64,000 bases of DNA from Escherichia coli (GTDB lineage Bacteria; Pseudomonadota; Gammaproteobacteria; Enterobacterales; Enterobacteriaceae): NCBI RefSeq assembly GCF_011045215.1, contig NZ_CP049201.1, one strand, 5' to 3'. This document shows, in pieces, positions 1-12,536 of this stretch. Both the position numbers and the translations under genes were made by a program. How positions within the stretch are numbered: position 1 is the stretch's first letter; every line of letters begins with the position of its first letter. The notes beneath the pieces were generated by a model. It was given only the letters and a program-made list of their open reading frames with translations. It was not told where the DNA came from and made no database searches.

Positions 1-147
1 GGCGTGGCCCGGGGCATCACGCTTCATACCGCGGTGAAGGACGACGACAGCGAGGTGGCCGGGATTATCCGCGCACTGCTTGCTGGTGAGGAAAACGCCA
101 GGCTGCGTGCAGCCCACTGGTTACATGAGAGGGGGCTGAAAGTATGA
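1..147 (+). CDS. 3' end of an upstream phage late-region ORF (partial, function unknown)
   Basis: Frame 1 is open from the window edge to TGA at 145-147, overlapping the ATG of the next gene (ATGA coupling). No family recognised from the 48 visible residues. Confidence 0.35.
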   Translation, partial: GVARGITLHTAVKDDDSEVAGIIRALLAGEENARLRAAHWLHERGLKV

Positions 148-521
148 AGCTGATTCTGCCTTTTCCACCCAGCGTGAACACCTACTGGCGACACCCCAAC
201 AAAGGGGCATTTGCTGGTAAGAGCCTGATAAGCGCGGCGGGGCGAAAATTCCAGAGTGCGGCGTGCACAGCAATAGTTGAGCAGTTACGTCGTCTGCCGA
301 AACCAACGTCGGCACCTGCTTCAGTGGAGATCGTGTTGTTTCCTCCGGATAACCGGATCCGCGATCTGGACAACTATAACAAGGCGCTGTTTGACGCCCT
401 GACCCACGCGGGTGTGTGGGAAGACGACAGCCAGGTGAAAAGAATGCTGGTGGAGTGGGGACCGGTTATCCCGGAAACGGATGTTGCGGGTTGTTGTTCT
501 GCGGGTTCTGTTCTTCGTTGA
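144..521 (+). CDS. RusA-family Holliday-junction resolvase-like protein
   Basis: 125-aa ORF with motifs LPFPPSVNTYWRH and RIRDLDNYNKALFDALTHAGVWEDDSQV, matching the RusA signature ([41 protein letters not shown]) including the acidic catalytic residues. Confidence 0.6.
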   Translation: MKLILPFPPSVNTYWRHPNKGAFAGKSLISAAGRKFQSAACTAIVEQLRRLPKPTSAPASVEIVLFPPDNRIRDLDNYNKALFDALTHAGVWEDDSQVKRMLVEWGPVIPETDVAGCCSAGSVLR

Positions 522-689
522 CATGAGGTTGCCCCGTATTCAGTTTCGCTGATTTGTATTGTCTGAAGTTGTTTTTACGTTAAGTTGATGCAGATCAATT
601 AATACGATACCTGCGTCATAATTGATTATTTGACGTGGTTTGATGGCGTAGATGCACGTTGTGACATGTAGATGATAATTATTATCATT

Positions 690-905
690 TTGCGGGTCCT
701 TTCCGGCGATCCGACATGTTACGGGGCGGCGACCTCGCGGGTTTTCGCTATTTATGAAAATTTTCCGGTTTAAGGCGTTTCCGTTCTTCTTCGTCGTAAC
801 TTAATGTTTTTATTTAAAATACCCCCTGAAAAGAAAGGAAACGACAGGTGCTGAAAGCGAGCTTTTTGGCCTCTGTCGTTTCCTTTCTCTGTTTTTGGCC
901 GTGGA
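690..905 (+). other. Lambda-type cos site (cosQ-cosN-cosB); cosN 12-nt cohesive-end sequence GGGCGGCGACCT at about 724-735
   Basis: ...gggtcctttccggcgatccgacatgttacg/gggcggcgacctcgcgggttttcgctatttatgaaaattttccggtttaaggcgtttccg... is near-identical to the joined right and left ends of phage lambda as I recall them, and sits immediately upstream of Nu1. Confidence 0.85.
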
Positions 906-912
906 ATGAACA

Positions 913-1458
913 ATGGAAGTCAACAAAAAGCAGCTGGCTGACATTTTCGGTGCGAGTATCCGTACCATTCAGAACTGGCAGGAACAGGGAATGCCCGTTC
1001 TGCGAGGCGGTGGCAAGGGTAATGAGGTGCTTTATGACTCTGCCGCCGTCATAAAATGGTATGCCGAAAGGGATGCTGAAATTGAGAACGAAAAGCTGCG
1101 CCGGGAGGTTGAAGAACTGCGGCAGGCCAGCGAGACAGATCTCCAGCCAGGGACTATTGAGTACGAACGCCATCGACTTACGCGTGCGCAGGCCGACGCA
1201 CAGGAGCTGAAAAATGCCAGAGACTCCGCTGAAGTGGTGGAAACCGCATTCTGTACTTTCGTGCTGTCGCGGATCGCAGGTGAAATTGCCAGTATTCTCG
1301 ACGGGATCCCCCTGTCGGTGCAGCGGCGTTTTCCGGAACTGGAAAACCGACATGTTGATTTCCTGAAACGGGATATCATCAAAGCCATGAACAAAGCAGC
1401 CGCGCTGGATGAACTGATACCGGGGTTGCTGAGTGAATATATCGAACAGTCAGGTTAA
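913..1458 (+). CDS. nohD: Phage terminase small subunit Nu1 (DNA-packaging protein)
   Basis: 181-aa product MEVNKKQLADIFGASIRTIQNWQEQGMPVLRGGGKGNEVLYDSAAVIKWY... is essentially identical to lambda Nu1; its 3' end overlaps the start of gene A as in lambda. Confidence 0.95.
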   Translation: MEVNKKQLADIFGASIRTIQNWQEQGMPVLRGGGKGNEVLYDSAAVIKWYAERDAEIENEKLRREVEELRQASETDLQPGTIEYERHRLTRAQADAQELKNARDSAEVVETAFCTFVLSRIAGEIASILDGIPLSVQRRFPELENRHVDFLKRDIIKAMNKAAALDELIPGLLSEYIEQSG

Positions 1459-2452
1459 CAGGCTGCGGCATTTTGTCCGCGCCGGGCTTCGCTCACTGTT
1501 CAGGCCGGAGCCACAGACCGCCGTTGAATGGGCGGATGCCAATTACTATCTCCCAAAAGAATCCGCATACCAGGAAGGGCGCTGGGAAACACTGCCCTTT
1601 CAGAGGGCCATCATGAATGCGATGGGCAGTGACTACATCCGCGAGGTGAATGTGGTGAAGTCTGCCCGTGTTGGTTATTCCAAAATGCTGCTGGGTGTTT
1701 ATGCCTACTTCATAGAGCATAAGCAGCGCAATACCCTTATCTGGTTGCCGACGGATGGTGATGCCGAGAACTTTATGAAAACCCACGTTGAGCCGACTAT
1801 TCGTGATATTCCGTCGCTGCTGGCGCTGGCCCCGTGGTATGGCAAAAAGCACCGGGATAACACGCTCACCATGAAGCGTTTCACCAATGGGCGTGGCTTC
1901 TGGTGCCTGGGCGGTAAAGCGGCAAAAAACTACCGTGAAAAGTCAGTGGATGTGGCGGGTTATGATGAACTTGCTGCCTTTGATGAGGATATTGAACAGG
2001 AAGGCTCTCCGACGTTCCTGGGCGATAAGCGTATTGAAGGCTCGGTCTGGCCAAAGTCCATCCGTGGCTCCACGCCCAAAGTGAGAGGCACCTGCCAGAT
2101 TGAGCGTGCAGCCAGTGAATCCCCGCATTTTATGCGTTTTCATGTTGCCTGCCCGCATTGCGGGGAGGAGCAGTATCTTAAATTTGGCGACAAAGAGACG
2201 CCGTTTGGCCTCAAATGGACGCCGGATGACCCCTCCAGCGTGTTTTATCTCTGCGAGCATAATGCCTGCGTCATCCGCCAGCAGGAGCTGGACTTTACTG
2301 ATGCCCGTTATATCTGCGAAAAGACCGGGATCTGGAGGGGAATACCAACATCGCCGGTGTCACGGTGGTGTTCCGGGCAGGTGAACAGGAGCAGACACCG
2401 CCGGAGGGATTTGAATCCTCCGGATCCGAGACGGTGCTGGGTACGGAAGTGA
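1433..2452 (+). pseudogene. Terminase large subunit (lambda gpA) N-terminal ~300 codons, truncated; A-like sequence ends near 2335 and the ORF runs on out of frame to 2452
   Basis: MNISNSQVNRLRHFVRAGLRSLFRPEPQTAVEWADANYYLPKESAYQEGRWETLPFQRAIMNAMGSDYIREV...CEKTGIW matches lambda gpA, then continues as unrelated residues RGIPTSPVSRW... gpA is ~640 aa in lambda. Confidence 0.85.
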
Positions 2453-2823
2453 AATACGACACGCCGATCACCCGGACCATCACGTCTGCAAACATCGACC
2501 GTCTGCGCTTTACCTTCGGTGTGCAGGCACTGGTGGAAACCACCTCAAAGGGGGACCGGAATCCATCGGAAGTCCGCCTGCTGGTTCAGATACAACGTAA
2601 CGGTGGCTGGGTGACGGAAAAAGACATCACCATTAAGGGCAAAACCACCTCGCAGTATCTGACCTCGGTGGTGGTGGGTAACCTGCCGCCGCGCCCGTTT
2701 AATATCCGGATGCGCAGGATGACGCCGGACAGCACCACAGACCAGCTGCAGAACAAAACGCTCTGGTCGTCATACACCGAAATCATCGATGTGAAACAGT
2801 GCTACCTTCTGCCCGTAAGGTGA
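2338..2823 (+). pseudogene. Internal fragment (~160 codons) of lambda-like tail-tip/host-specificity gene J, with no N-terminus or C-terminus
   Basis: Translation ...VVFRAGEQEQTPPEGFESSGSETVLGTEVKYDTPITRTITSANIDRLRFTFGVQALVETTSKGDRNPSEVRLLVQIQRNGGWVTEKDITIKGKTTSQY...IIDVKQCY matches the middle of lambda J. It is in a different frame from the truncated A and ends in unrelated sequence. Confidence 0.8.
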
Positions 2824-4004
2824 ATGGTAAGGCGCTTTCAGCGGATATAACACTGACGCCGAAAGATATTGGTACGCTTAACTCAACAACAATGTCATTC
2901 AGCGGTGGTGCTGGTTGGTTCAAATTAGCAACGGTAACCATGCCACAGGCGAGTTCTGTTGTTTCAATTACGTTGATTGGTGGAGCTGGATTTAACGTGG
3001 GGTCACCTCAACAGGCAGGTATATCTGAACTTGTTTTGCGTGCAGGTAATGGTAATCCGAAGGGGATTACTGGTGCTTTATGGCAGCGCACATCGACAGG
3101 GTTTACAAATTTTGCCTGGGTCAATACATCTGGTGATACTTACGATATTTACGTTGCAATCGGAAATTATGCGACTGGTGTAAATATTCAATGGGATTAT
3201 ACCAGTAATGCCAGCGTGACGATTCATACGTCACCAGCATATTCTGCTAATAAGCCGGAAGGGTTAACGGACGGTACAGTTTATTCACTCTATACGCCAT
3301 CAGAACAGTTTTATCCGCCTGGCGCACCAATCCCGTGGCCATCAGATACCGTTCCGTCTGGCTATGCCCTGATGCAGGGGCAGACTTTTGACAAATCTGC
3401 CTACCCGAAACTTGCAGTCGCTTATCCGTCAGGCGTGATCCCTGATATGCGTGGCTGGACGATTAAGGGCAAGCCCGCCAGTGGTCGTGCCGTATTGTCT
3501 CAGGAACAGGACGGCATTAAATCGCATACCCACAGCGCCAGCGCATCCAGTACGGATTTGGGTACGAAAACCACATCGTCGTTTGATTACGGAACCAAAT
3601 CCACGAATAACACCGGGGCGCATACCCATAGTATTAGCGGGACTGCAAATAGTGCCGGTGCGCACCAACACAAGAGTTCCGGTGCATTTGGTGGCACGAA
3701 CACGAGCATTTTTCCTAATGGTTATACTGCGATTTCAAATCCAAGCGCGGGGATTATGAGCACAACAAGCGGTACTGGCCAGACTCGTAATGCAGGGAAG
3801 ACATCATCAGATGGTGCTCATACCCACTCACTGTCCGGCACTGCTGCAAGCGCAGGTGCACACGCACATACTGTCGGTATTGGTGCTCATACGCACTCCG
3901 TTGCGATTGGTTCACATGGACACACCATCACCGTTAACGCTGCTGGTAACGCGGAAAACACCGTCAAAAACATCGCATTTAACTATATTGTGAGGCTTGC
4001 ATAA
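2799..4004 (+). CDS. Side tail fibre protein, C-terminal receptor-binding portion with His-box repeats (probably a 5'-truncated remnant using an internal GTG)
   Basis: 401-aa ORF with repeated GAHTHS/GAHQH/GAHAHT/GSHGHT motifs and a C-terminal ...[22 protein letters not shown] typical of lambdoid Stf and T4 gp37-like fibre tips. Its stop overlaps the tfa start (TAATGG). The N-terminal tail-attachment region expected for Stf is absent. Confidence 0.65.
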
Positions 4005-4585
4005 TGGCATTCAGAATGAGTGAACAACCACGGACCATAAAAATTTATAATCTGCTGGCCGGAACTAATGAATTTATTGGTGAAGGTGACGCATATATTC
4101 CACCTCATACAGGTCTGCCAGCAAACAGTACCGATATTGCACCGCCAGATATTCCGGCAGGCTTCGTGGCTGTTTTCAACAGTGATGAGGCATCGTGGCA
4201 TCTTGTTGAAGACCATCGGGGTAAAACGGTTTATGACGTGGCTTCCGGCGACGCGTTATTTATTTCTGAACTCGGCTTATTACCGGAAAATGTCACCTGG
4301 TTATCCCCGGAAGGGGAGTTTCAGAAGTGGAACGGCACAGCCTGGGTGAAAGATGCAGAAGCAGAAAAACTGTTCCGGATCCGGGAGGCGGAAGAAACAA
4401 AAAACAACCTGATGCAGGTAGCCAGTGAGCATATTGCGCCACTTCAGGATGCTGTAGATCTGGAAATCGCAACGGAGGAAGAAAACTCGTTGCTGGAAGC
4501 CTGGAAGAAGTATCGGGTGTTGCTGAACCGTGTTGATACATCAACTGCACCTGATATTGAGTGGCCTGTAATACCAGAAGTTTAA
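4004..4585 (+). CDS. Tail fibre assembly protein (Tfa)
   Basis: 193-aa ORF translationally coupled to stf; the C-terminus ...[49 protein letters not shown] is the conserved Tfa motif. Confidence 0.85.
4431..4543 (+). repeat. Direct repeat copy 1: 3' segment of tfa (about 88% identical to 8260-8373)
   Basis: atattgcgccacttcaggatgctgtagatctggaaatcgcaacggaggaagaaaactcgttgctggaagcctggaagaagtatcgggtg... is nearly repeated at 8260-8373. Confidence 0.8.
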
Positions 4586-4589
4586 AATA

Positions 4590-4617
4590 AAAGCCCGCTT
4601 AAAATATCGCGGGCTTC
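4590..4617 (-). terminator. Hairpin (aaagcccgc...gcgggcttt) with a T-run on the minus strand; candidate terminator for the minus-strand catalase operon and possibly for tfa
   Basis: Inverted repeat aagcccgc / gcgggctt between convergent tfa and catalase genes; the minus-strand reading gives the stem followed by TTATTTTA. Confidence 0.5.
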
Positions 4618-4704
4618 GAAATATAAATGTATTTTCAGAGGCTAGAGCTTAGGATATCTCAGCGGCAATTAACTTATGAGGGATAGCTAAATACCAGAAG
4701 ATAA

Positions 4705-5595
4705 TTAGTTTTTACTATTTATCTTTGTTTGTGGTTCTCCTTCAGCAAGCTCAGCGCCAGTGACAGGATTGATGTCTTCATGGGATTTCAACCTTGTTGC
4801 CATAGCTTTTATCATAGCTTCTTGCTTGGTCGAAAGATTTATCGAGGCCTTCCCATCCCCACCGTCAACCGCTGGAACTGGATCGGAAATATAGTCAAAG
4901 TTTTCATCACTGTTCCAACTACCTCTGACGTCTTCACCTTCTGACATGTTGTAATATACGTTTTTGTATTTCTCAATTGGTGGTAATTTTCCTGGTGGAA
5001 AGGTGTTGCGAATTGAATGTAATGCTTTTTCAAATGAAAGCATGTGTGCTGCTTCCCTGGTCATTAAAAATGCCAGAGTGTCTTTTACTCCAGGATCATC
5101 AGTAACATTAATGAGACGTTCGTAAATGATCTTTGCCCGAGCTTCAGCTGCAATATTTGAACGAAGATCGGCCGTGACTTCGCCAATAGTATCAACATAA
5201 GCTGCAGTCCAGGGTACTCCAGCTGAATTAGTTAATGCTGGGCCTCCTCCGTAGAGGAGAGAAGTTATATGGCTGTCATTGCCATTTTGAGTTAAGGAAC
5301 GGTAAAGCTCAGCTTCATTCTCAGTTCCTTCAGCAAGTGCTCCTTTTGCACCTTTGTTGAGCATACCAACAAGAGAACCAATAATTTCGAGATGACTTAG
5401 TTCTTCTGTTGCTATGTCCATCAGCATATCCCTTCGGCCTGCATCTTCATCACTTAAGCCTTGAGTGAAGTATCGGCATGCTGCTGCAAGCTCACCCTGT
5501 GGCCCGCCGAATTGTTCTAAAAGTAGATTAGCCAAGCCTGGGTTTGGCTCACTTACACGTACTGTATATTGAAGTTTTTTCACGTGTCTAAACAT
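4705..5595 (-). CDS. Manganese (non-haem) catalase, KatN-like
   Basis: 296-aa product with ferritin-like Mn-catalase architecture (…EELSHLEIIGSLV…, …TREAAHMLSFEKAL…). It is last in a yciG-yciF-yciE-catalase gene order, as in the Salmonella yciGFE-katN operon. Confidence 0.8.
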   Translation of the reverse strand: MFRHVKKLQYTVRVSEPNPGLANLLLEQFGGPQGELAAACRYFTQGLSDEDAGRRDMLMDIATEELSHLEIIGSLVGMLNKGAKGALAEGTENEAELYRSLTQNGNDSHITSLLYGGGPALTNSAGVPWTAAYVDTIGEVTADLRSNIAAEARAKIIYERLINVTDDPGVKDTLAFLMTREAAHMLSFEKALHSIRNTFPPGKLPPIEKYKNVYYNMSEGEDVRGSWNSDENFDYISDPVPAVDGGDGKASINLSTKQEAMIKAMATRLKSHEDINPVTGAELAEGEPQTKINSKN

Positions 5596-5613
5596 AATGC
5601 CTCCTCAAAAGAA

Positions 5614-6120
5614 TTATTTTTTGGCTTCAACTCCATCAATTTCAGATCTGACCATGAATTGCTCAGTGGTGTCAGGAATATGGTTAAGAAGCCATTCAGC
5701 CATTTGTTTTTCTTCATTAAGAATTGCTTCAATAATGGGTACTGAAGCTGTATCACCCGCATTTTTGGCTGCTGCGAGAAGAGATGTGTAGCACGCAATT
5801 TCAAATTGTTCGAAAACATAGCCACTGATCGAACCTTTGACAATTTCATCAGATGGAAAAATTCCACCAATGGATTGCCCAAACGCGGCCATTTTACTCA
5901 TAGAGTCTTTAATGACAGAGCGCGAAATATTATTACGATCAAGTATGCTTTCAAGCTGTGAAAGCTGGTTCTTTGTTTCGCTAATGTGCTGCTCAATTCT
6001 GGAACGTAACTCTGGATAGTTTTCTATCCGGCTGGCCATAGACTCAAGCATTTTTTCAGCTTGTTTCTCCATCGCATGTGCATCACGAAGCCAGTCATGG
6101 TAATGTTCAATTCTATTCAT
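5614..6120 (-). CDS. YciE-like ferritin-like/DUF892 stress protein
   Basis: 168-aa product MNRIEHYHDWLRDAHAMEKQAEKMLESMASRIENYPELR... closely resembles E. coli YciE. Confidence 0.85.
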   Translation of the reverse strand: MNRIEHYHDWLRDAHAMEKQAEKMLESMASRIENYPELRSRIEQHISETKNQLSQLESILDRNNISRSVIKDSMSKMAAFGQSIGGIFPSDEIVKGSISGYVFEQFEIACYTSLLAAAKNAGDTASVPIIEAILNEEKQMAEWLLNHIPDTTEQFMVRSEIDGVEAKK

Positions 6121-6156
6121 AATCTGTTTATCCTAAAAGAAATTGAAGTCTATAGT

Positions 6157-6663
6157 TCAGGAGTTATCCTGAGCTTTTTTATTAACGTTATTAAATGCCA
6201 GGTCTGTTAATTTGACATCAGTAGCTTTTTCCTCTTCCAGTGTTTCTTTCAGGAGTTTAGCCGCTTTTTTATATCCTAATTGCTCAGCGAGTGTTACCAA
6301 AGTGCCATAACTGGCAATTTCATAGTGCTCTACTTTTTGTGCTGCAGCAATCAATGCAGCATCACGTACTTCATTTTTATCAGTGCTTTCAATTACCTCA
6401 TTCGCCTCTTCGATAAGTCCTTCCATTGCGGCACACTTAATTCTTTTCAATTTAAGACCATCTTCAGAATCAACAATCTGATCGATGCGTTCAATTTGAC
6501 CATGTGTCTCATCAAGATGTGACTGAAAAGCAGCGGTTAATTTATCACTATATGCAGAGCGACTAAGTTTAGACAGTGCCTTTGTTAGTTGTTTCTCAGC
6601 GCTGTATGTATCCGATAATAAGTGGATGAAGATATCTTCAACAGATTTAATTTGCATAATCAC
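6157..6663 (-). CDS. YciF-like DUF892 stress protein
   Basis: 168-aa product ...VEDIFIHLLSDTYSAEKQLTKAL...EVRDAALIAAAQKVEHYEIASYGTL... closely resembles E. coli YciF. Confidence 0.85.
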   Translation of the reverse strand: MIMQIKSVEDIFIHLLSDTYSAEKQLTKALSKLSRSAYSDKLTAAFQSHLDETHGQIERIDQIVDSEDGLKLKRIKCAAMEGLIEEANEVIESTDKNEVRDAALIAAAQKVEHYEIASYGTLVTLAEQLGYKKAAKLLKETLEEEKATDVKLTDLAFNNVNKKAQDNS

Positions 6664-6735
6664 TCCAGAGTTTTCACTGCGAGCCCGTAGGCTCGCAGTT
6701 AGCTTCAGTTATTCACGAATGTAGGGGATGATAAA

Positions 6736-6918
6736 TTAAGAGTCAGATTTACGGCCGCCACCATGGCTATTCTGACCACCTTTTTTCCCTGCTTCTGATG
6801 CTCTTTGTGGATCGTTTTTAAAATTACCGCCACTATGTTGGCCGCCTTTACGACCAGCGTCAGAAGCTTTTTGTCGATCTTCAGCGAAATTACCTGCACC
6901 GCCACGATGTTCGGTCAT
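6736..6918 (-). CDS. YciG-like KGG-repeat general stress protein
   Basis: 60-aa product MTEHRGGAGNFAEDRQKASDAGRKGGQHSGGNFKNDPQRASEAGKKGGQ... with KGG repeats, resembling YciG/YmdF; first gene of the four-gene minus-strand operon. Confidence 0.8.
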   Translation of the reverse strand: MTEHRGGAGNFAEDRQKASDAGRKGGQHSGGNFKNDPQRASEAGKKGGQNSHGGGRKSDS

Positions 6919-7383
6919 ATCATTTCTCCTCTGATTTTCAAATTGTAAATAACATGTGCCTTGTCAGCACCCAATTAACTCTAGTAACAAATAAGAAAGT
7001 GTCAAATAACAGATTGGTATGCGCATTTTGATGTGAGAAATAATAATTGTAAAAATGTGCGCTCAGTGAGTATAATCTATTGATATCTTAGTGATTAACG
7101 GAAAATTTAGGTTGTAACTCAAAAGATTAATAAACCTAAATTTACATTTCTATATTATTTGGTGTGCCTGTTGTTGTTTTTCTCAATAAGAATACTCTGT
7201 AAAATAATTCAATCGTAAGATGGTTGTTATTCATATTTTTTTGAGATAGTTCCTAATAGGGTCCATCCCTTGAATAAATAATTGTTTTAAAATTTCGTCT
7301 AAAGAACTAATTACAAGAAAATTTATATAGTCCAAGGAATCATGATTGTACTTAACCATAAGATTTGAGCGTAAAAATTAATG

Positions 7384-7414
7384 CGCAGCACGTCGTATGC
7401 AAGAACGTGCTGCG
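7384..7414 (-). terminator. Rho-independent terminator candidate downstream of the methyltransferase gene
   Basis: 9-bp perfect stem cgcagcacg / cgtgctgcg; on the minus strand it is followed by ATTAATTTTT. Confidence 0.55.
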
Positions 7415-7422
7415 GTTGGATG

Positions 7423-8091
7423 CTATTTTTTCCCTGAAGCGGAAAACATTACTACAGTACCTTGAACCTTGGTTTTAACATTCTCGAAATGCTCTGAGAG
7501 TATATGTGTTAAGCCTTCTTCGGAATCTCTTGTGTTTGAAAAGATGCCTTTCTGATTGTAAATGCGCATCAGTTTTTGACCGAAGCGATTGTGCACAATT
7601 CCATCGCCAAGAATTGTGGCTCCGTATAGAGTTCCATCGCCAGTTAAGGCCTGCGCCGCATTGCGTATTACACAGCTTTTTGTAGATATATTTCCAGGCA
7701 GGCAGTGAAGAAGGTAAAACATGGAAATGGAATCAAATTGACCATGTAACGCCGCGGGATAAGGTTCAAAAACATCATGGCTAATTTTATGTTTAATTTT
7801 TGATTCCCCAGCCCTTGTAGATGCCGCGTTCAGGCTAGCTTCGTTCAAATCCATTAAAGATATCAGACTACTCTCAGGTACGTGAGTAAGGTAAAACCCA
7901 GTTCCAACACCAATATCCAGATGGTTGTTACCTAAATGTTCCAGAAAGTGTGGAAGAAGGTGTTCCTTTGTAGGACATCCCCATGCAAGCCGATTTGATA
8001 CTCCCAAAACCCACCAGTCATAAAGCTTTAGGGTAAGTGGTGTGTAAATTTTAGCCCCATCATCTGTGTTTTTTTTCATTAATTTCACCAT
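7423..8091 (-). CDS. ybcY: Class I SAM-dependent methyltransferase (YbcY-like), apparently intact
   Basis: 222-aa ORF with the SAM-binding motif LDIGVGTGFY and a Rossmann-type methyltransferase layout. It occupies the ybcY position of DLP12, between the tfa copies. Confidence 0.7.
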   Translation of the reverse strand: MVKLMKKNTDDGAKIYTPLTLKLYDWWVLGVSNRLAWGCPTKEHLLPHFLEHLGNNHLDIGVGTGFYLTHVPESSLISLMDLNEASLNAASTRAGESKIKHKISHDVFEPYPAALHGQFDSISMFYLLHCLPGNISTKSCVIRNAAQALTGDGTLYGATILGDGIVHNRFGQKLMRIYNQKGIFSNTRDSEEGLTHILSEHFENVKTKVQGTVVMFSASGKK

Positions 8092-8147
8092 GTTATAGTT
8101 TTATTTGTGAATTAAATCAATTATGGCAATGAATTACAAGGGGTTAA

Positions 8148-8453
8148 ATGCTGCCGCAGCATGGCGATATTGAAATAGCCTGGTATGCTTCAATACAGCA
8201 GGAGCCGAATGGCTGGAAGACCGTCACCACACAGTTCTACATCCAGGAATTCAGTGAGTATATTGCGCCACTGCAGGATGCTGTAGATCTGGAAATCGCA
8301 ACGGAGGAAGAAAGATCGTTGCTGGAGGCATGGAATAAATATCGGGTATTGTTGAATCGTGTTGATACATCAGTAGCTCTGGGTATGAAGCTGTTTGTAA
8401 CTCATGTTACAGTAACAGCCATTACTATCTCGAAGGTGCAAAATGTATATTGA
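8148..8453 (+). pseudogene. tfaX: Tail fibre assembly gene remnant (tfaX-like), carrying only part of the Tfa C-terminal domain
   Basis: 101-aa ORF with ...[38 protein letters not shown]... but no Tfa N-terminal half, and a divergent C-terminal tail. Confidence 0.7.
8260..8373 (+). repeat. Direct repeat copy 2: tfa 3' segment (pairs with 4431-4543)
   Basis: tattgcgccactgcaggatgctgtagatctggaaatcgcaacggaggaagaaagatcgttgctggaggcatggaataaatatcgggta... Confidence 0.8.
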
Positions 8454-8581
8454 TTTGATATTTTATAAATTTACTTCGAATCTGGCACGTCAACTTTTGA
8501 TTAAAGTAATATCAGTTTTCGGCGAAAAAAGGACCGTGTACATGAGACGATTTCATACAAGAATAACAAAAATATGAATAT

Positions 8582-8615
8582 GCTCCCAATGCAATATATG
8601 TTTTGCATTGGGAGC
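8582..8615 (-). terminator. Rho-independent terminator candidate for the peptidase gene
   Basis: 12-bp stem gctcccaatgca / tgcattgggagc; the minus-strand reading is followed by a T-rich run. Confidence 0.55.
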
Positions 8616-8636
8616 AAATAGCGGAATATTTTGAAA

Positions 8637-10121
8637 TTATTGTATTTCTGCTTCAGAATTTCCTGGGCAGTATATATTTTCTATTTTTTGTGGAGTGATC
8701 AGGTGATGTACAACTGCTTTATCTACACATAAATTAACTCCGGTGAGAGCTAATGTATGCCCATCACCATTTATTGTTAGTAACGGGCTGGAAAATTTCT
8801 CTGCCATCTTACGGGCATTAATCCAGGGCGTTGTTGGATCGTATTTGTGTGCTACAAACAGTAAACCAGAGGGCAGAACAGTATTTTTCAGGCGAGTTTT
8901 GTTCAGGTCGCTATGTATTGGCCATAATTCACAAAAATCAGGTGAATCGGAACGTCCATTGTCAAAGTTAATAGCCGGGAAGGCATTCGCAAGAGCCTCT
9001 TTTCGGAATTTTCGCTCTTCTGGTGTTAATTGCTCATCCCCCTGATCTACACAAAGGATTACCCCCGAAGCATCACTTGACTCTTCTGAGGCTATCGGAG
9101 CACTGAGCGCAGTTTCAATTTCATTACTGACAATCCCCTGAGAGAACTGGCGTATGGCAGTTGCAAGGGTTGGCCATGATGAACGCCATAGCAGAAGGTC
9201 TGTTGTTAATGATATGAGTTCATCTGAAGATATATTTTCTCCCTTACTGTCTAATAAAGGTTTGTGATGTAATTTTGATAATAGCTCATGGAACTGAGTT
9301 ATTGCCTTATCTCTGTCTGAAGAAAGCGGGCAACTTTTTGTACGCGCACACCAGGATGCAAAGCGATCAAACGTTTCCTGATAACTCTGTGCCTGTTTGA
9401 GTTGCCATGTGAAGTTGTTCTCCAGGTCATCGATATCGACGACTCCATCAAGAACGATAGATCTTACGTTGTAGGGAAAACGTTCTGCATATAAGGCTGC
9501 AATTTGAGTTCCATACGAATACGCCACGGCTGTCAGTTGTTTATCCCCCAAGGCTTGCCTAATACGATCAATATCGTATACAGCCTCGTTAGAGCCGATA
9601 TGGCGAATGACTTCGGCTCCGGTATTATGGATACAGGCATTAATTTTATTTAATACTTGTTGCTTTTCGGTTATGTTTTCCTGAGTCTCTGTATCTGATT
9701 GTCGGCAGTTTATTGTCGGAGTGGACTGTCCGACGCCTCGAGGATCAAATCCAATAATATCCCATGACTCACGAAGATTTGTGACTGGCCAGTCAAAGTT
9801 AATATAAGGATTTATGCCTGGCAACCCGGGACCACCACTTATTATCAGGATACTTCCTTTATGCTTGCTTTTTGCCGGCAATTTTGTCAACGCTAGTTTG
9901 ACTTGTGATTTTTTTTCATAAGAAGCATCTCCGCCTGTGTCTGTATATTTTAATGGAACAGACAAATAACCACATAGTAAGTCAGGAGACGGTTTTTCCT
10001 CACCAAACCAGTGGTTGAATTGACTGGCCATACAGGATTGCCACTGTATCTGCTGGGCAGATACGGTTACTGGTAGAAGTAACGTTAAAACAACTTTGAA
10101 ATGAGTAATTATTTTTCGCAT
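8637..10121 (-). CDS. Secreted alpha/beta-hydrolase, S33-type (tripeptidyl/prolyl aminopeptidase-like) peptidase
   Basis: 494-aa ORF with an N-terminal signal peptide (MRKIITHFKVVLTLLLPVTVSA), a GGPGLPG oxyanion-type motif and a nucleophile elbow VAYSYGTQ (G-x-S-x-G variant). Confidence 0.65.
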   Translation of the reverse strand: MRKIITHFKVVLTLLLPVTVSAQQIQWQSCMASQFNHWFGEEKPSPDLLCGYLSVPLKYTDTGGDASYEKKSQVKLALTKLPAKSKHKGSILIISGGPGLPGINPYINFDWPVTNLRESWDIIGFDPRGVGQSTPTINCRQSDTETQENITEKQQVLNKINACIHNTGAEVIRHIGSNEAVYDIDRIRQALGDKQLTAVAYSYGTQIAALYAERFPYNVRSIVLDGVVDIDDLENNFTWQLKQAQSYQETFDRFASWCARTKSCPLSSDRDKAITQFHELLSKLHHKPLLDSKGENISSDELISLTTDLLLWRSSWPTLATAIRQFSQGIVSNEIETALSAPIASEESSDASGVILCVDQGDEQLTPEERKFRKEALANAFPAINFDNGRSDSPDFCELWPIHSDLNKTRLKNTVLPSGLLFVAHKYDPTTPWINARKMAEKFSSPLLTINGDGHTLALTGVNLCVDKAVVHHLITPQKIENIYCPGNSEAEIQ

Positions 10122-10260
10122 TGTGTCTCTGAATATCGGAATAAAGATAAAATTTGAATATATTGAGGTCTTGTGTTGCGGTAAGAGATTACACGTTATG
10201 ACATAGGTTAAATGCTTACAAAATTAGTGGATATTGTCTACTTGTAACTGTAAACAAATT

Positions 10261-10287
10261 CCCCGGGGTTATACAATACCACCGGGG
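10261..10287 (-). terminator. Hairpin (ccccgggg...ccgggg) downstream of ompT; candidate terminator
   Basis: GC-rich inverted repeat about 20-45 nt past the ompT stop on the minus strand. Confidence 0.4.
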
Positions 10288-10307
10288 AGAAAATCTGGTT
10301 AACTTCG

Positions 10308-11261
10308 TTAAAAGGTGTACTTAAGACCAGCAGTAGTGATGAAGTTATAGTTTTCTATGCCTGCACCATTTTTGCTGTAGTCTGAAGTGTTATCATTGTG
10401 ATCATAAAGTGAAGTATTACCTTTTTTATTCGTAACCCGATTCCATGCGCCTTCAACATAAACTTTTGCGTTAGGTGTTACGTAATAACCTGCATTGACT
10501 GCAACAGAATAGTAATTTTGGTCTTTGACCTTACTGCGATAAGTGATTCTTTTTCCCGGGTCATAGTGTTCATCGTTATCAGATGATTCCACCCAGCCGC
10601 TGTATTTAAATGTGCCACCGAGTTCAAAATCTTCATAACGATAACTTCCAGTCAAGCCAATGTAGGGCATTTTAAAACGTTGTTTGTAGCCGATTGCTCT
10701 TTCTCCATTCGGGAAGGAGCCGATATCATCTCTGAATCCCTCCTCAGAACTGTAGATATAGGAACCACCTCTGGCTGTAAAGCTATAACGGCTTTCCTGA
10801 TATCCGGCCATGAGTCCCAGGCGGTAATTGGGTTCGTTGAGGAGCCAGCCTTTGATATTCAGATCAAATTCGTTGGCATAATTGAGTTGTGTATCAGGGT
10901 GCTTACTTTCATCTGTCCAGGTTCCGGGGTTACTGGAATCCATCCAGTCCTGATCGACCATATTGCCACCCCGGCTGCCGAGAGTAGTCCAGCCCGCAGC
11001 CCCAATAGATATCTGGGGCATCAAATCCCAATTAATTGCACCTTTAATAATTGCAGCGTTATTGAATTTCCAGTCGAGTTGACTGACTTTTCGGCCTCCT
11101 TCTTCAGCTAGATAAACGCGCTCTTTTGTTTTTCCGCTCAGAGTTCCAAGACTAATGTCCACATTTATGTTGTCAGGAGTAAACGATATAGTCTCGGTAG
11201 AAGCAAAAGAGCTGATCGCAATAGGGGTTGTCAGGACTATTCCCAGAAGTTTCGCCCGCAT
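10308..11261 (-). CDS. ompT: Outer-membrane protease VII (omptin)
   Basis: 317-aa product MRAKLLGIVLTTPIAISSFASTETISFTPDNINVDISLGTLSGKTKERVYLAEEGG... matches OmpT nearly residue for residue. Confidence 0.95.
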   Translation of the reverse strand: MRAKLLGIVLTTPIAISSFASTETISFTPDNINVDISLGTLSGKTKERVYLAEEGGRKVSQLDWKFNNAAIIKGAINWDLMPQISIGAAGWTTLGSRGGNMVDQDWMDSSNPGTWTDESKHPDTQLNYANEFDLNIKGWLLNEPNYRLGLMAGYQESRYSFTARGGSYIYSSEEGFRDDIGSFPNGERAIGYKQRFKMPYIGLTGSYRYEDFELGGTFKYSGWVESSDNDEHYDPGKRITYRSKVKDQNYYSVAVNAGYYVTPNAKVYVEGAWNRVTNKKGNTSLYDHNDNTSDYSKNGAGIENYNFITTAGLKYTF

Positions 11262-11684
11262 AAAAGTTCTCCATTCAATCGTTTTAATGATTGAATATGT
11301 ATTTTTTATATCTAACTTAATGAGTCAATTACATATTGCTCCACTGTTTATATTTTGTTTAGTATTGAATGATTATCACAATGCGCTATCTATTTTTGGT
11401 TTAATTATCTGTTATTGTTTCATATTGCGGTTTTACTGTGTGTTTTTTTTATGCTTTTGTGGTGCTTTTATCTATTTAAGTGCCATGCCTTTAGAGGCAT
11501 ATAAGCGAAAATAGCACGAGGTTTATCCTCAATTGCTATGTTTTTTAGTACAAAAAAGAGGGACAAAACTGAGACACATAAGGCCTCACAATGGCTTGCA
11601 AGGCTTTACATGTTTTGAGGTAGTGGGACGTGTGAGCGCAGAGATGGCGCGGTAAGTTGTTGACTTAAAATGTCGTTCTAGGAA

Positions 11685-11729
11685 CTTCTAAGTCGTGGGC
11701 CGCAGGTTCGAATCCTGCAGGGCGCGCCA
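11685..11729 (+). other. Prophage attR: duplicated 3' ~45 nt of tRNA-Arg (argU); a tRNA fragment, not a functional gene
   Basis: cttctaagtcgtgggccgcaggttcgaatcctgcagggcgcgcca is the 3' half of argU, with no matching 5' half or D-arm upstream. This is the expected right junction of an argU-integrated prophage. Confidence 0.85.
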
Positions 11730-11774
11730 TTTCTTCTTCATTTATGCCCGTCTTATCCGTTTCCGCTTTGCCCT

Positions 11775-12536
11775 TCACCACATCACTTTTTGTCGCTGTT
11801 TGGCGAGATAATTCAACGGTGTCAGGCCGTAAAACGCCTTAAAAACAGAGATAAAGTACGACGTGCTGCTATAGCCACATAATTGCGCCACCTGAGTGAT
11901 ATTTTTGTTATCCATCAATAACATCTGTACGGCGTAACGCATACGACACTCTGTGACAATCTGGCTATAGCTGGTATTTTCGTTTTTTAATTTCTTTTTG
12001 AGCAGGCTGGGGCTTAAACATAGCGAACTGGCGACAATTCGCAGATTCCAGTAATGCTGAATATCGCTTTGAATAATGCGGCAGACGCTGTCGCGGACGC
12101 TGCTGCGTAAGATATACATCAGTAGGGCAATAAACCGCGATTGCTCAAGAAAGTTAGACAATACGGTAAAAAGCAATGCGCGCGTCAACTCCGCTTCGCA
12201 GGGTTTGCTGGGTTGCTGCTTGCTGTGGTTGGCGGCTAGCCGGAACACTTCCGGTGTACGGCTATGACAAGCGATAACCGGGGTAGCCAGCCGCGACCAG
12301 GGCTTTACACAGGTTAAGTTCTTATTTAAAAACAACAGATAATCGTTGATGATGTTACGGTTGATGTGGGTGATTAATACGTGATTTAACGTTGAGAGTT
12401 CAATGACGTTATTGTTGCACGCGAAGGCGGCCAGGTAGTTTTTCGGAAGGGTAAACGTAGCATGGTTATTGACGCTTACCTCTACCTCTTTTTCGGTCAG
12501 GATCACCACGCAAGGTTCACTGCTGCTCAATTGCAT
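11775..12536 (-). CDS. envY: AraC-family transcriptional regulator EnvY (porin thermoregulation)
   Basis: 253-aa product MQLSSSEPCVVILTEKEVEVSVNNHATFTLPKNYLAAFACNNNVIELS... with a C-terminal AraC HTH. Confidence 0.9.
   Translation of the reverse strand: MQLSSSEPCVVILTEKEVEVSVNNHATFTLPKNYLAAFACNNNVIELSTLNHVLITHINRNIINDYLLFLNKNLTCVKPWSRLATPVIACHSRTPEVFRLAANHSKQQPSKPCEAELTRALLFTVLSNFLEQSRFIALLMYILRSSVRDSVCRIIQSDIQHYWNLRIVASSLCLSPSLLKKKLKNENTSYSQIVTECRMRYAVQMLLMDNKNITQVAQLCGYSSTSYFISVFKAFYGLTPLNYLAKQRQKVMW

Follow-up and report, generated by a model that had tools for sequence, protein, structure and literature searches.

A prophage remnant at the DLP12 locus of Escherichia coli retains a T4 gp37-like fibre tip with its chaperone gene and is cut at a recurrent stf breakpoint

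Relics that combine the tip-coding part of stf, the side tail fibre gene of lambdoid phages, with the tail fibre assembly gene tfa are common in Escherichia coli. A closely similar described example is the stfQ-tfaQ pair (b1547-b1546) in the Qin cryptic prophage of K-12, in which an N-terminally truncated stf is joined to a terminase stub, nohA', and is followed by an intact Tfa gene. Lambda recombines experimentally with the stf/tfa regions of the K-12 cryptic prophages Rac and Qin (PMC3945230), and Montag et al. (1989), in the account of that work given in PMC3945230, describe horizontal exchange of tail-fibre sequence between lambda Stf and T4 gp37 and functional replacement of the receptor-recognising part of gp37 by a component of the lambda side tail fibre. 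Here we analyse a pair of this kind, a 5'-truncated stf (stf') and an intact tfa, in a 64,000-nucleotide stretch of an E. coli genome (contig NZ_CP049201.1, assembly GCF_011045215.1; hereafter the window, numbered from its first letter). Taken as a whole, the evidence makes it very probable that this is a decayed remnant at the DLP12 locus, in which stf' is inert alone and can serve only as a donor of tip plus chaperone by recombination. The nucleotide at which stf is cut proved to be a breakpoint that recurs in other deletions. The features that carry these statements are listed here.

2799-4004, + strand: stf', 401 codons with a nominal GTG start, from the list of open reading frames (ORFs)
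2803-2804, no strand: TA at the deletion junction between a gpJ fragment (J') and stf', within a TACC common to both parents
2805-3269 (residues 3-157), + strand: distal shaft module, no Pfam match, present also in some T-even gp37 proteins (tblastn)
3321-3464 (residues 175-222), + strand: collar domain (PF07484, E 1.1e-11)
3525-3923, + strand: His-box needle with seven HxH motifs, from the motif list and the alignment with PDB entry 2XGF
3675-3833 (residues ~293-345), + strand: variable tip (head) between His boxes 3 and 4, diverging from gp37
3992-3995, + strand: Shine-Dalgarno-like GAGG, 8 nt before the tfa ATG, read from the sequence
4004-4585, + strand: tfa, intact tail fibre assembly chaperone of 193 residues (PF02413, E 3e-44)

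Nucleotide alignments placed the beginning of stf' homology at 2803, so that the ORF corresponds to the C-terminal 400 residues of a lambdoid Stf. Among full-length proteins the nearest is Stf of E. coli 55989, which has 987 residues and is 98.75% identical over residues 588-987, and RefSeq labels the equivalent ORF 'phage tail protein, missing N-terminus'. In the 401-residue product, Pfam found the collar and a 14-residue tail fibre repeat, and neither the N-terminal tail-attachment domain PF08400 nor any PF03406 shaft repeat; full-length 55989 Stf has PF08400 at residues 1-134, a domain also present in K-12 StfR, and three PF03406 repeats. NCBIfam gave no match for Stf', Tfa or full-length Stf. 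Residues 158-401 matched chain residues 15-242 of the T4 gp37 tip (2XGF) end to end (E 7.1e-84), which fixes the fold of this part. The collar aligns with the gp37 collar (D10) region, whose limits were taken from PMC6957217, and all seven HxH motifs (KSHTHS, GAHTHS, GAHQHK, GAHTHS, GAHAHT, GAHTHS and GSHGHT, at residues 243, 275, 289, 341, 355, 364 and 373) are in register with those of gp37, the needle of which holds seven coordinated iron atoms along its length (PMC6957217). The last 11 residues, which form the conserved strand running back to the collar, are the same in the two proteins. Within residues 158-401 the only divergent stretch lies between His boxes 3 and 4, where the loops are unrelated and those of stf' are ~16 residues longer; in T4 gp37 this region carries residues 933-953, which contact OmpC and lipopolysaccharide (PMC6957217), and in stf' it is presumed to be the receptor-contacting part. 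Because the scaffold is gp37-like but the tip loops differ, the receptor of stf' cannot be inferred from T4. Tips of the gp37 type are homotrimers with octahedrally coordinated Fe2+ that bind OmpC or lipopolysaccharide, and stf' may form a homotrimer of this kind. Ahead of the collar, the distal shaft module (residues ~27-38 to 157) is ~56-60% identical by tblastn to some T-even gp37 proteins, those of phages moha, TH54 and F2 among them, a typical case of mosaicism in tail fibres.

The stop codon of stf' (TAA, 4002-4004) shares its last A with the tfa start in a TAATG overlap (GCATAATGGCA). The PF02413 (Caudo_TAP) match in the tfa product covers profile positions 1-131, and the protein is 99.5% identical to TfaQ of 55989 and, over 191 residues, 95-96% identical to K-12 TfaQ (95.8%) and TfaR, both of which are 191 residues long. 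Its C-terminal domain matches Mu Tfa (gpU, PDB 5YVQ; E 2.1e-9), and the protein is of this Tfa/gpU type, unlike the T4 chaperone gp38. Tfa is a full-length PF02413-type protein with predicted chaperone activity for the adjoining fibre tip, and as read from the DNA the coding potential for a whole distal fibre module plus chaperone is intact. An earlier note on this DNA had described a gp37-like His-box tip with the conserved fibre C-terminus, the loss of the N-terminal attachment region and a cognate Tfa gene overlapping the stf stop; each of these is borne out by the results above, far beyond what chance would give, and the dissimilarity to tip domains that the note had said would count against it was looked for and its opposite found in the 2XGF match.

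Compared with its relatives, the window's pair is a further instance of the known relics of stf tip and tfa, with K-12 StfQ/TfaQ as a near twin. The StfQ tip is 95.9% identical to that of the window over residues 164-401. StfQ differs in having another distal shaft module and another breakpoint and in lacking the sequence at the TA (hereafter the anchor), and Qin has pinQ after tfaQ instead of manganese (Mn) catalase cargo and lies at the ydfJ locus, not at DLP12. The whole window tip is 94.6% identical to that of the lambdoid phages mEp332 and ev099. Collar and needle are ~78% identical in K-12 StfR and in the 2013C-4974 fibre, and K-12 StfE is distant from stf' (36% identity). The full-length Stf loci of 55989 and O157:H7, whose product is named 'prophage tail fiber N-terminal domain-containing protein', resemble the window in the last 400 residues of the fibre, at the 98.75% identity given above, and in having the same tfa followed by Mn-catalase, ferritin-like and stress-protein cargo. 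Unlike the window, they have 971-987 codons with PF08400 and the three PF03406 repeats, and intact J and lom upstream. The right end of K-12 DLP12 (nohD-aaaD'-tfaD'-ybcY'-tfaX'-appY-ompT) is the same locus, with nohD, a terminase stub, a methyltransferase gene and a tfaX fragment, but there stf' is wholly lost, as are the beginning of tfa and the Mn-catalase cargo, and appY stands in place of the hydrolase gene.

Upstream of stf' the window holds the following remains of phage genes.

913-1458, + strand: nohD-like small terminase subunit (Nu1 homologue), intact, a 181-residue ORF
1433-2336, + strand: large terminase (gpA) stub, the N-terminal ~301 codons and then a frame change (PF05876, GpA_ATPase, E 2.3e-51)
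2338-2806, + strand: internal fragment of gpJ (J nucleotides ~166-637, FNIII-A; PF24801, E 1.2e-42)

The region homologous to nohD is annotated as nohD or DNA-packaging protein in RM10410 and K-12 DLP12, and homology to the RM10410 terminase pseudogene stops at 2336. The J' fragment (472 bp) is 96.2% identical to gpJ of E. coli 55989 (L002 257-728) and is out of frame with both neighbours, the terminase stub, J' and stf' occupying three different frames. With lom absent and J reduced to this fragment, stf' does not stand downstream of intact J and lom. An in-frame stop lies ~100 nt upstream of 2799 with no start codon in between, so no longer fibre can be read; this rules out an in-frame extension of stf' and settles the one further finding, a start giving a full-length fibre, that the earlier note had said would overturn it. 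At the terminase'-J' junction (2335-2338) there is one untemplated G and no TA, which points to a different event or mechanism from that at the J'-stf' junction 470 bp away. In FDN-9 (L080), too, two junctions are separated by a short piece of filler, 184 bp of portal/protease. The double junction of terminase', J' and stf' was found in none of 5,426 complete E. coli genomes. The gpJ fragment, the terminase stub, the likeness to the StfQ tip and the recurrent breakpoint described next had no place in the earlier note.

Three left partners are joined to stf at the same nucleotide: J' in the window, terminase' in RM10410 and J' in the Rac prophage of Z217-2. We scanned IMG/VR with a 25-mer starting at the junction and obtained 53 contigs, of which 43 had the intact stf flank, 2 the terminase flank seen in RM10410 and 7 further, unrelated left flanks; in the one remaining contig the left flank was too short to assign. 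A further two junction types turned up in complete E. coli genomes. For every junction we obtained the partner in its unrearranged form, be it at other loci, in lambda or in complete E. coli genomes. Altogether, 12 distinct deletion junctions fell within 8 bp (-5 to +2) of the TA at 2803-2804. Ten lie exactly on the TA, and the unrearranged partner has a TA at that point in all ten; the remaining two are at +2 (no microhomology) and at -3 (TC). Beyond the TA, the two sides of a junction share no more sequence than expected by chance. The partners are terminase A, the tape measure gene, K, three positions in J, stf codon 2, a ParB-like gene, sites after trkG and after bor, the portal/protease boundary and an ea8.5-like gene adjoining exo. 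The junction sequences other than that of the window are as follows.

L001 6180, L003 5300, L008, L010, L020, L023, L024, L031, L042, L079 4001 and L080 3999: sequences with a junction on or within 8 bp of the TA, besides window 2803-2804

A control probe placed 436 bp downstream of the TA, and hence unbiased toward it, returned the anchored junctions again, and the 436 bp in between contained only two further truncations, at +133 and +265. No reciprocal or inversion product was found with a left-side probe, for which all 46 contigs had the normal right side. Metagenome matches were intact in 17 of 17 cases; among complete E. coli genomes, 1,267 have the intact junction and 67 a partial match only, and the three sampled from these 67 all keep the right half only. 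The TA follows codon 587 of Stf, directly after the third PF03406 repeat and therefore at the boundary to the distal module. Exact-sequence and keyword searches of the literature found no description of a breakpoint at the anchor. The recurrence of the breakpoint is statistically secure, and of the mechanisms considered, a recurrent DNA end with microhomology joining fits the 8-bp scatter best. A second coincidence of breakpoints was noticed in the ylcI region, where the window's junction between rusA' and the ylcI side (472-473, ..CCCGGAAA joined to CGGATGTTGCGGG) and a junction of FDN-9 (..GGTTAGGAAA joined to TCTCCCG) break 1-2 nt apart and keep opposite sides (window 472-473; L080 3818; L001 4176); with two cases only, this may be chance.

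We tentatively suggest, as a reading that may well prove wrong, that stf is cut at an undescribed, sequence-specific hot spot of breakage or joining, which would repeatedly and in one direction strip the upstream prophage from stf back to int and spare the tip, the chaperone gene and the cargo. One way in which such a site could work is that a DNA end (a nick, a double-strand break or an arrested nascent strand) arises there repeatedly and is joined through microhomology to upstream prophage DNA, with deletion of what lies between. The endpoints are spread over 8 bp rather than confined to one bond, the microhomologies are short (0-5 nt), the events are without exception one-sided deletions, only 2 junctions fall in the next 436 bp, and the site coincides with a module boundary, the end of the third PF03406 repeat. 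However, simple nibbling of an end does not explain the preference for TA (10 of 12), no nuclease or barrier was identified, and a hairpin or cruciform at the anchor, which we considered and rejected, is not supported by the predicted fold (z -0.6 to -0.8); we regard this explanation as possible but somewhat unlikely. The TA preference suggests a site-specific small serine recombinase of the stf-linked PinR/PinQ type that crosses over at the TA with loosely matching secondary sites, as Cin does on quasi-cix sites and as lambda Int does in making att-anchored deletions. Ten junctions on one TA, a partner TA in all ten and chance-level similarity beyond it agree with such an enzyme, and in two of the truncated loci tfa has pinR or pinQ as its neighbour. 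PinR and PinQ form a distinct subfamily; with an identity of only 38% between PinR and PinE, the PinR site may not be of the Din type. A conserved palindrome found upstream of pinR has G-TA-C at its centre, as the anchor does, although the resemblance is weak. Yet two junctions (+2 and -3) are off the TA, the anchor lacks dyad symmetry, an AAACC..GGTTT motif and an inverted partner, the 46 contigs contained no inversion or reciprocal product, and no pin gene lies downstream of any of ~45 intact anchors or anywhere in the window, all of which makes a recombinase an improbable agent. Less probable still is a ghost insertion sequence (IS) that once sat at the TA with a 2-bp target duplication and was lost with variable left-hand DNA by copy-out strand switching or by IEE-type joining through microhomology. 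An IS has been shown to be lost together with flanking DNA through microhomologies of 2-4 bp at its boundary (bioRxiv 10.1101/2023.06.07.543989), all events seen here are deletions to one side, and copies of IS1203 and IS3 occur in this prophage region in some strains; but among ~75 sequences with either side of the site there is no IS-bearing allele, and in L020 the GGG still runs directly into TA-CC, so that this junction must have come from an allele without an IS.

The palindrome just mentioned (ATTTGTATG-TA-CACGTT) lies ~75-90 bp upstream of pinR/pinQ (L061 8750, L083 1532, L098 6910). A second copy was seen only in Tritos and PhiR63_1, which have a second tail-fibre gene arrangement, and as a match it is at chance level; no convincing partner site for the palindrome was found. 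Functional lambdoid phages carry PinR/PinQ unchanged directly after tfa. The invertible segments G of Mu, C of P1 and P of e14 (Pin) resemble the cut stf in that a fibre C-terminal module plus Tfa is parted from a constant N-terminal part at a defined site. The window has no equivalent of the crossover site of e14 (TTCTCCCAAACCAAGGTTT, at the NLGLGE motif). A search for the 26-bp Din-type site (AAACC-NN-GGTTT core), which recovered the e14 sites as a positive control, found nothing with 8 mismatches or fewer in stf' or the DNA flanking it, and window positions 1-12000 contain neither a recombinase ORF nor an inverted copy of stf/tfa, the tfa' fragment at 8148 being in direct orientation. With no crossover site, invertase or inverted module, a Din/Pin-type invertible segment is ruled out. 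Other candidates were also set aside: IS30, since the lambda IS30 hot spot (33,290) and the IS30 inverted repeats are unlike the anchor; a transposon with terminal inverted repeats starting at the anchor, since no inverted end copy was found within 7 mismatches; and, by reasoning only, breaks made by Cas3 or by restriction at GGTACC, whose expected polarity and overhangs misfit the retained side and the junction sequences.

As to what the relic does, a promoter scan found no sigma-70-like site on the + strand between 689 and 4800, and no Shine-Dalgarno sequence could be read before 2799, which makes independent function of stf' unlikely. In the course of decay, successive deletions would have removed most of the phage and left the rusA fragment, nohD, the terminase stub, 472 bp of J, the 3' 1.2 kb of stf, the intact tfa and accessory genes (the Mn-catalase cluster, the methyltransferase gene and the tfa' fragment). 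The retained stf' encodes the whole distal, receptor-recognising part, from the distal shaft module through the collar and seven-His-box needle to the tip. Alone it would be neither made in useful amounts nor attached to a virion, and we infer that it acts only after recombination into a phage that supplies the N-terminal part; the missing promoter-like site and Shine-Dalgarno sequence and the out-of-frame fragments upstream fit this. Donation of the module by homologous recombination is plausible, with the conserved collar, needle and tfa sequences as the stretches of homology by which tip and chaperone gene could pass to a lambdoid phage that infects the cell or already resides in it. Two observations support the earlier note's idea of a reservoir of host-range specificity, namely the recombination of lambda with Rac and Qin cited above (PMC3945230) and the identity, over 399 codons, of the truncated copy in L001 with a copy inside the full-length gene of L034.

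Several points weigh against an inert donor. From nohD through A', J' and stf' to tfa (913-4585) the ORFs overlap in one continuous chain behind the only promoter-like site, at 659-688, and the J' stop overlaps an in-frame GTG of stf' as GTGA (2820-2823), so that low-level coupled or read-through translation of stf' may occur. Pairwise ratios of non-synonymous to synonymous substitution rates (dN/dS) are ~0.1-0.2 in all stf' comparisons, with 8 synonymous and 2 non-synonymous changes between the window copy and the nearest intact one, but low values cannot separate constraint before truncation from constraint after it. A recombinant phage carrying the window's own stf'-tfa copy was not observed. 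One could argue from the ORF chain with its GTGA overlap, from the low dN/dS, from the GAGG that tfa has of its own and from the frames, which with tfa are intact in 10 of 11 fully sequenced truncated copies, that stf'-tfa is expressed and retained for a host function of its own, as a soluble receptor-binding protein or an exclusion factor. We consider this very improbable. No promoter-like site or Shine-Dalgarno sequence precedes stf', and the left partners of the truncated copies are unrelated in content and stand in all three frames, which leaves these copies with no common expression context; K-12 DLP12, moreover, has lost stf' entirely. The open frames, the dN/dS values, the few changes from the nearest intact copy and the identity to intact copies fit recency, or repeated overwriting of the relic through recombination with functional copies, and are no proof of selection on it. 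We therefore retain the reading of a remnant that is inert alone and donates its tip and chaperone gene.

By itself the relic adds little: K-12 and thousands of E. coli genomes have annotated equivalents, and exchange of stf/tfa DNA between cryptic prophages and phages is already known. Its practical value is a catalogued receptor-binding tip, of the StfQ/mEp332 type, that is open to uptake by an incoming lambdoid phage. The main interest lies in the recurrent breakpoint, which can be tested experimentally. If a defined process cuts stf at the TA, domestication of E. coli prophages has a preferred route, one that keeps host-range modules and accessory genes and discards killing functions. Prophage decay would then be partly programmed rather than random, and the abundance of relics of stf tip plus tfa in E. 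coli would be explained.

The region lies at the DLP12 locus, flanked by the argU-side phage genes and by ompT, and is best read as what is left of the right-hand end of a lambdoid prophage; the window aligns with K-12 DLP12 on both sides, as expected of a cryptic prophage at this locus. The gene order is the rusA fragment, nohD, terminase', J', stf', tfa, a convergent cluster of Mn-catalase, two ferritin-like and stress genes, a SAM methyltransferase gene (ybcY), tfa' (tfaX), an alpha/beta hydrolase gene and ompT. The sizes of the downstream ORFs fit what are presumably ompT, nfrA/B and cusSRCFBA, named after the K-12 map. The entF-fes region is at most 98.7% identical to any complete E. coli genome. 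Less decay is seen at the DLP12 locus of O157:H7 PV15-279 and of strain 2013C-4974, where stf is full-length and is accompanied by J/lom or K/I, by tfa and, as in the window, by the cargo, the hydrolase gene and ompT. In RM10410 and at least 10 other genomes terminase' is joined directly to stf'-tfa, the order at DLP12 in RM10410 being nohD, terminase', stf' and tfa. In the window the hydrolase gene (8637-10121, 494 residues) separates the tfaX-like fragment from ompT and occupies the place that appY has in K-12. Two further features flank the cargo.

4588-4620, no strand: G+C-rich hairpin (AAGCCCGC...GCGGGCTT) between tfa and the convergent Mn-catalase gene
8148-8453, + strand: tfa' fragment, equivalent of K-12 tfaX (PF02413, E 8.9e-18)

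The hairpin was missed by the hairpin scan because its loop exceeds 8 nt; it has a T-run on the - strand only and is probably the terminator of the cargo operon, not that of late phage transcription. A 132-bp core of tfa' (8241-8372) repeats the 3' end of tfa (4412-4565) in direct orientation with ~88% identity (blastn), and the two copies of the tfa 3' end bracket 3.6 kb of - strand cargo, with genes for an Mn catalase, two ferritin-like proteins of the YciE/YciF type, a small general stress protein and the SAM methyltransferase. In other strains the slot between tfa and the methyltransferase gene holds a pin-ydfK-ynfT module (L081).

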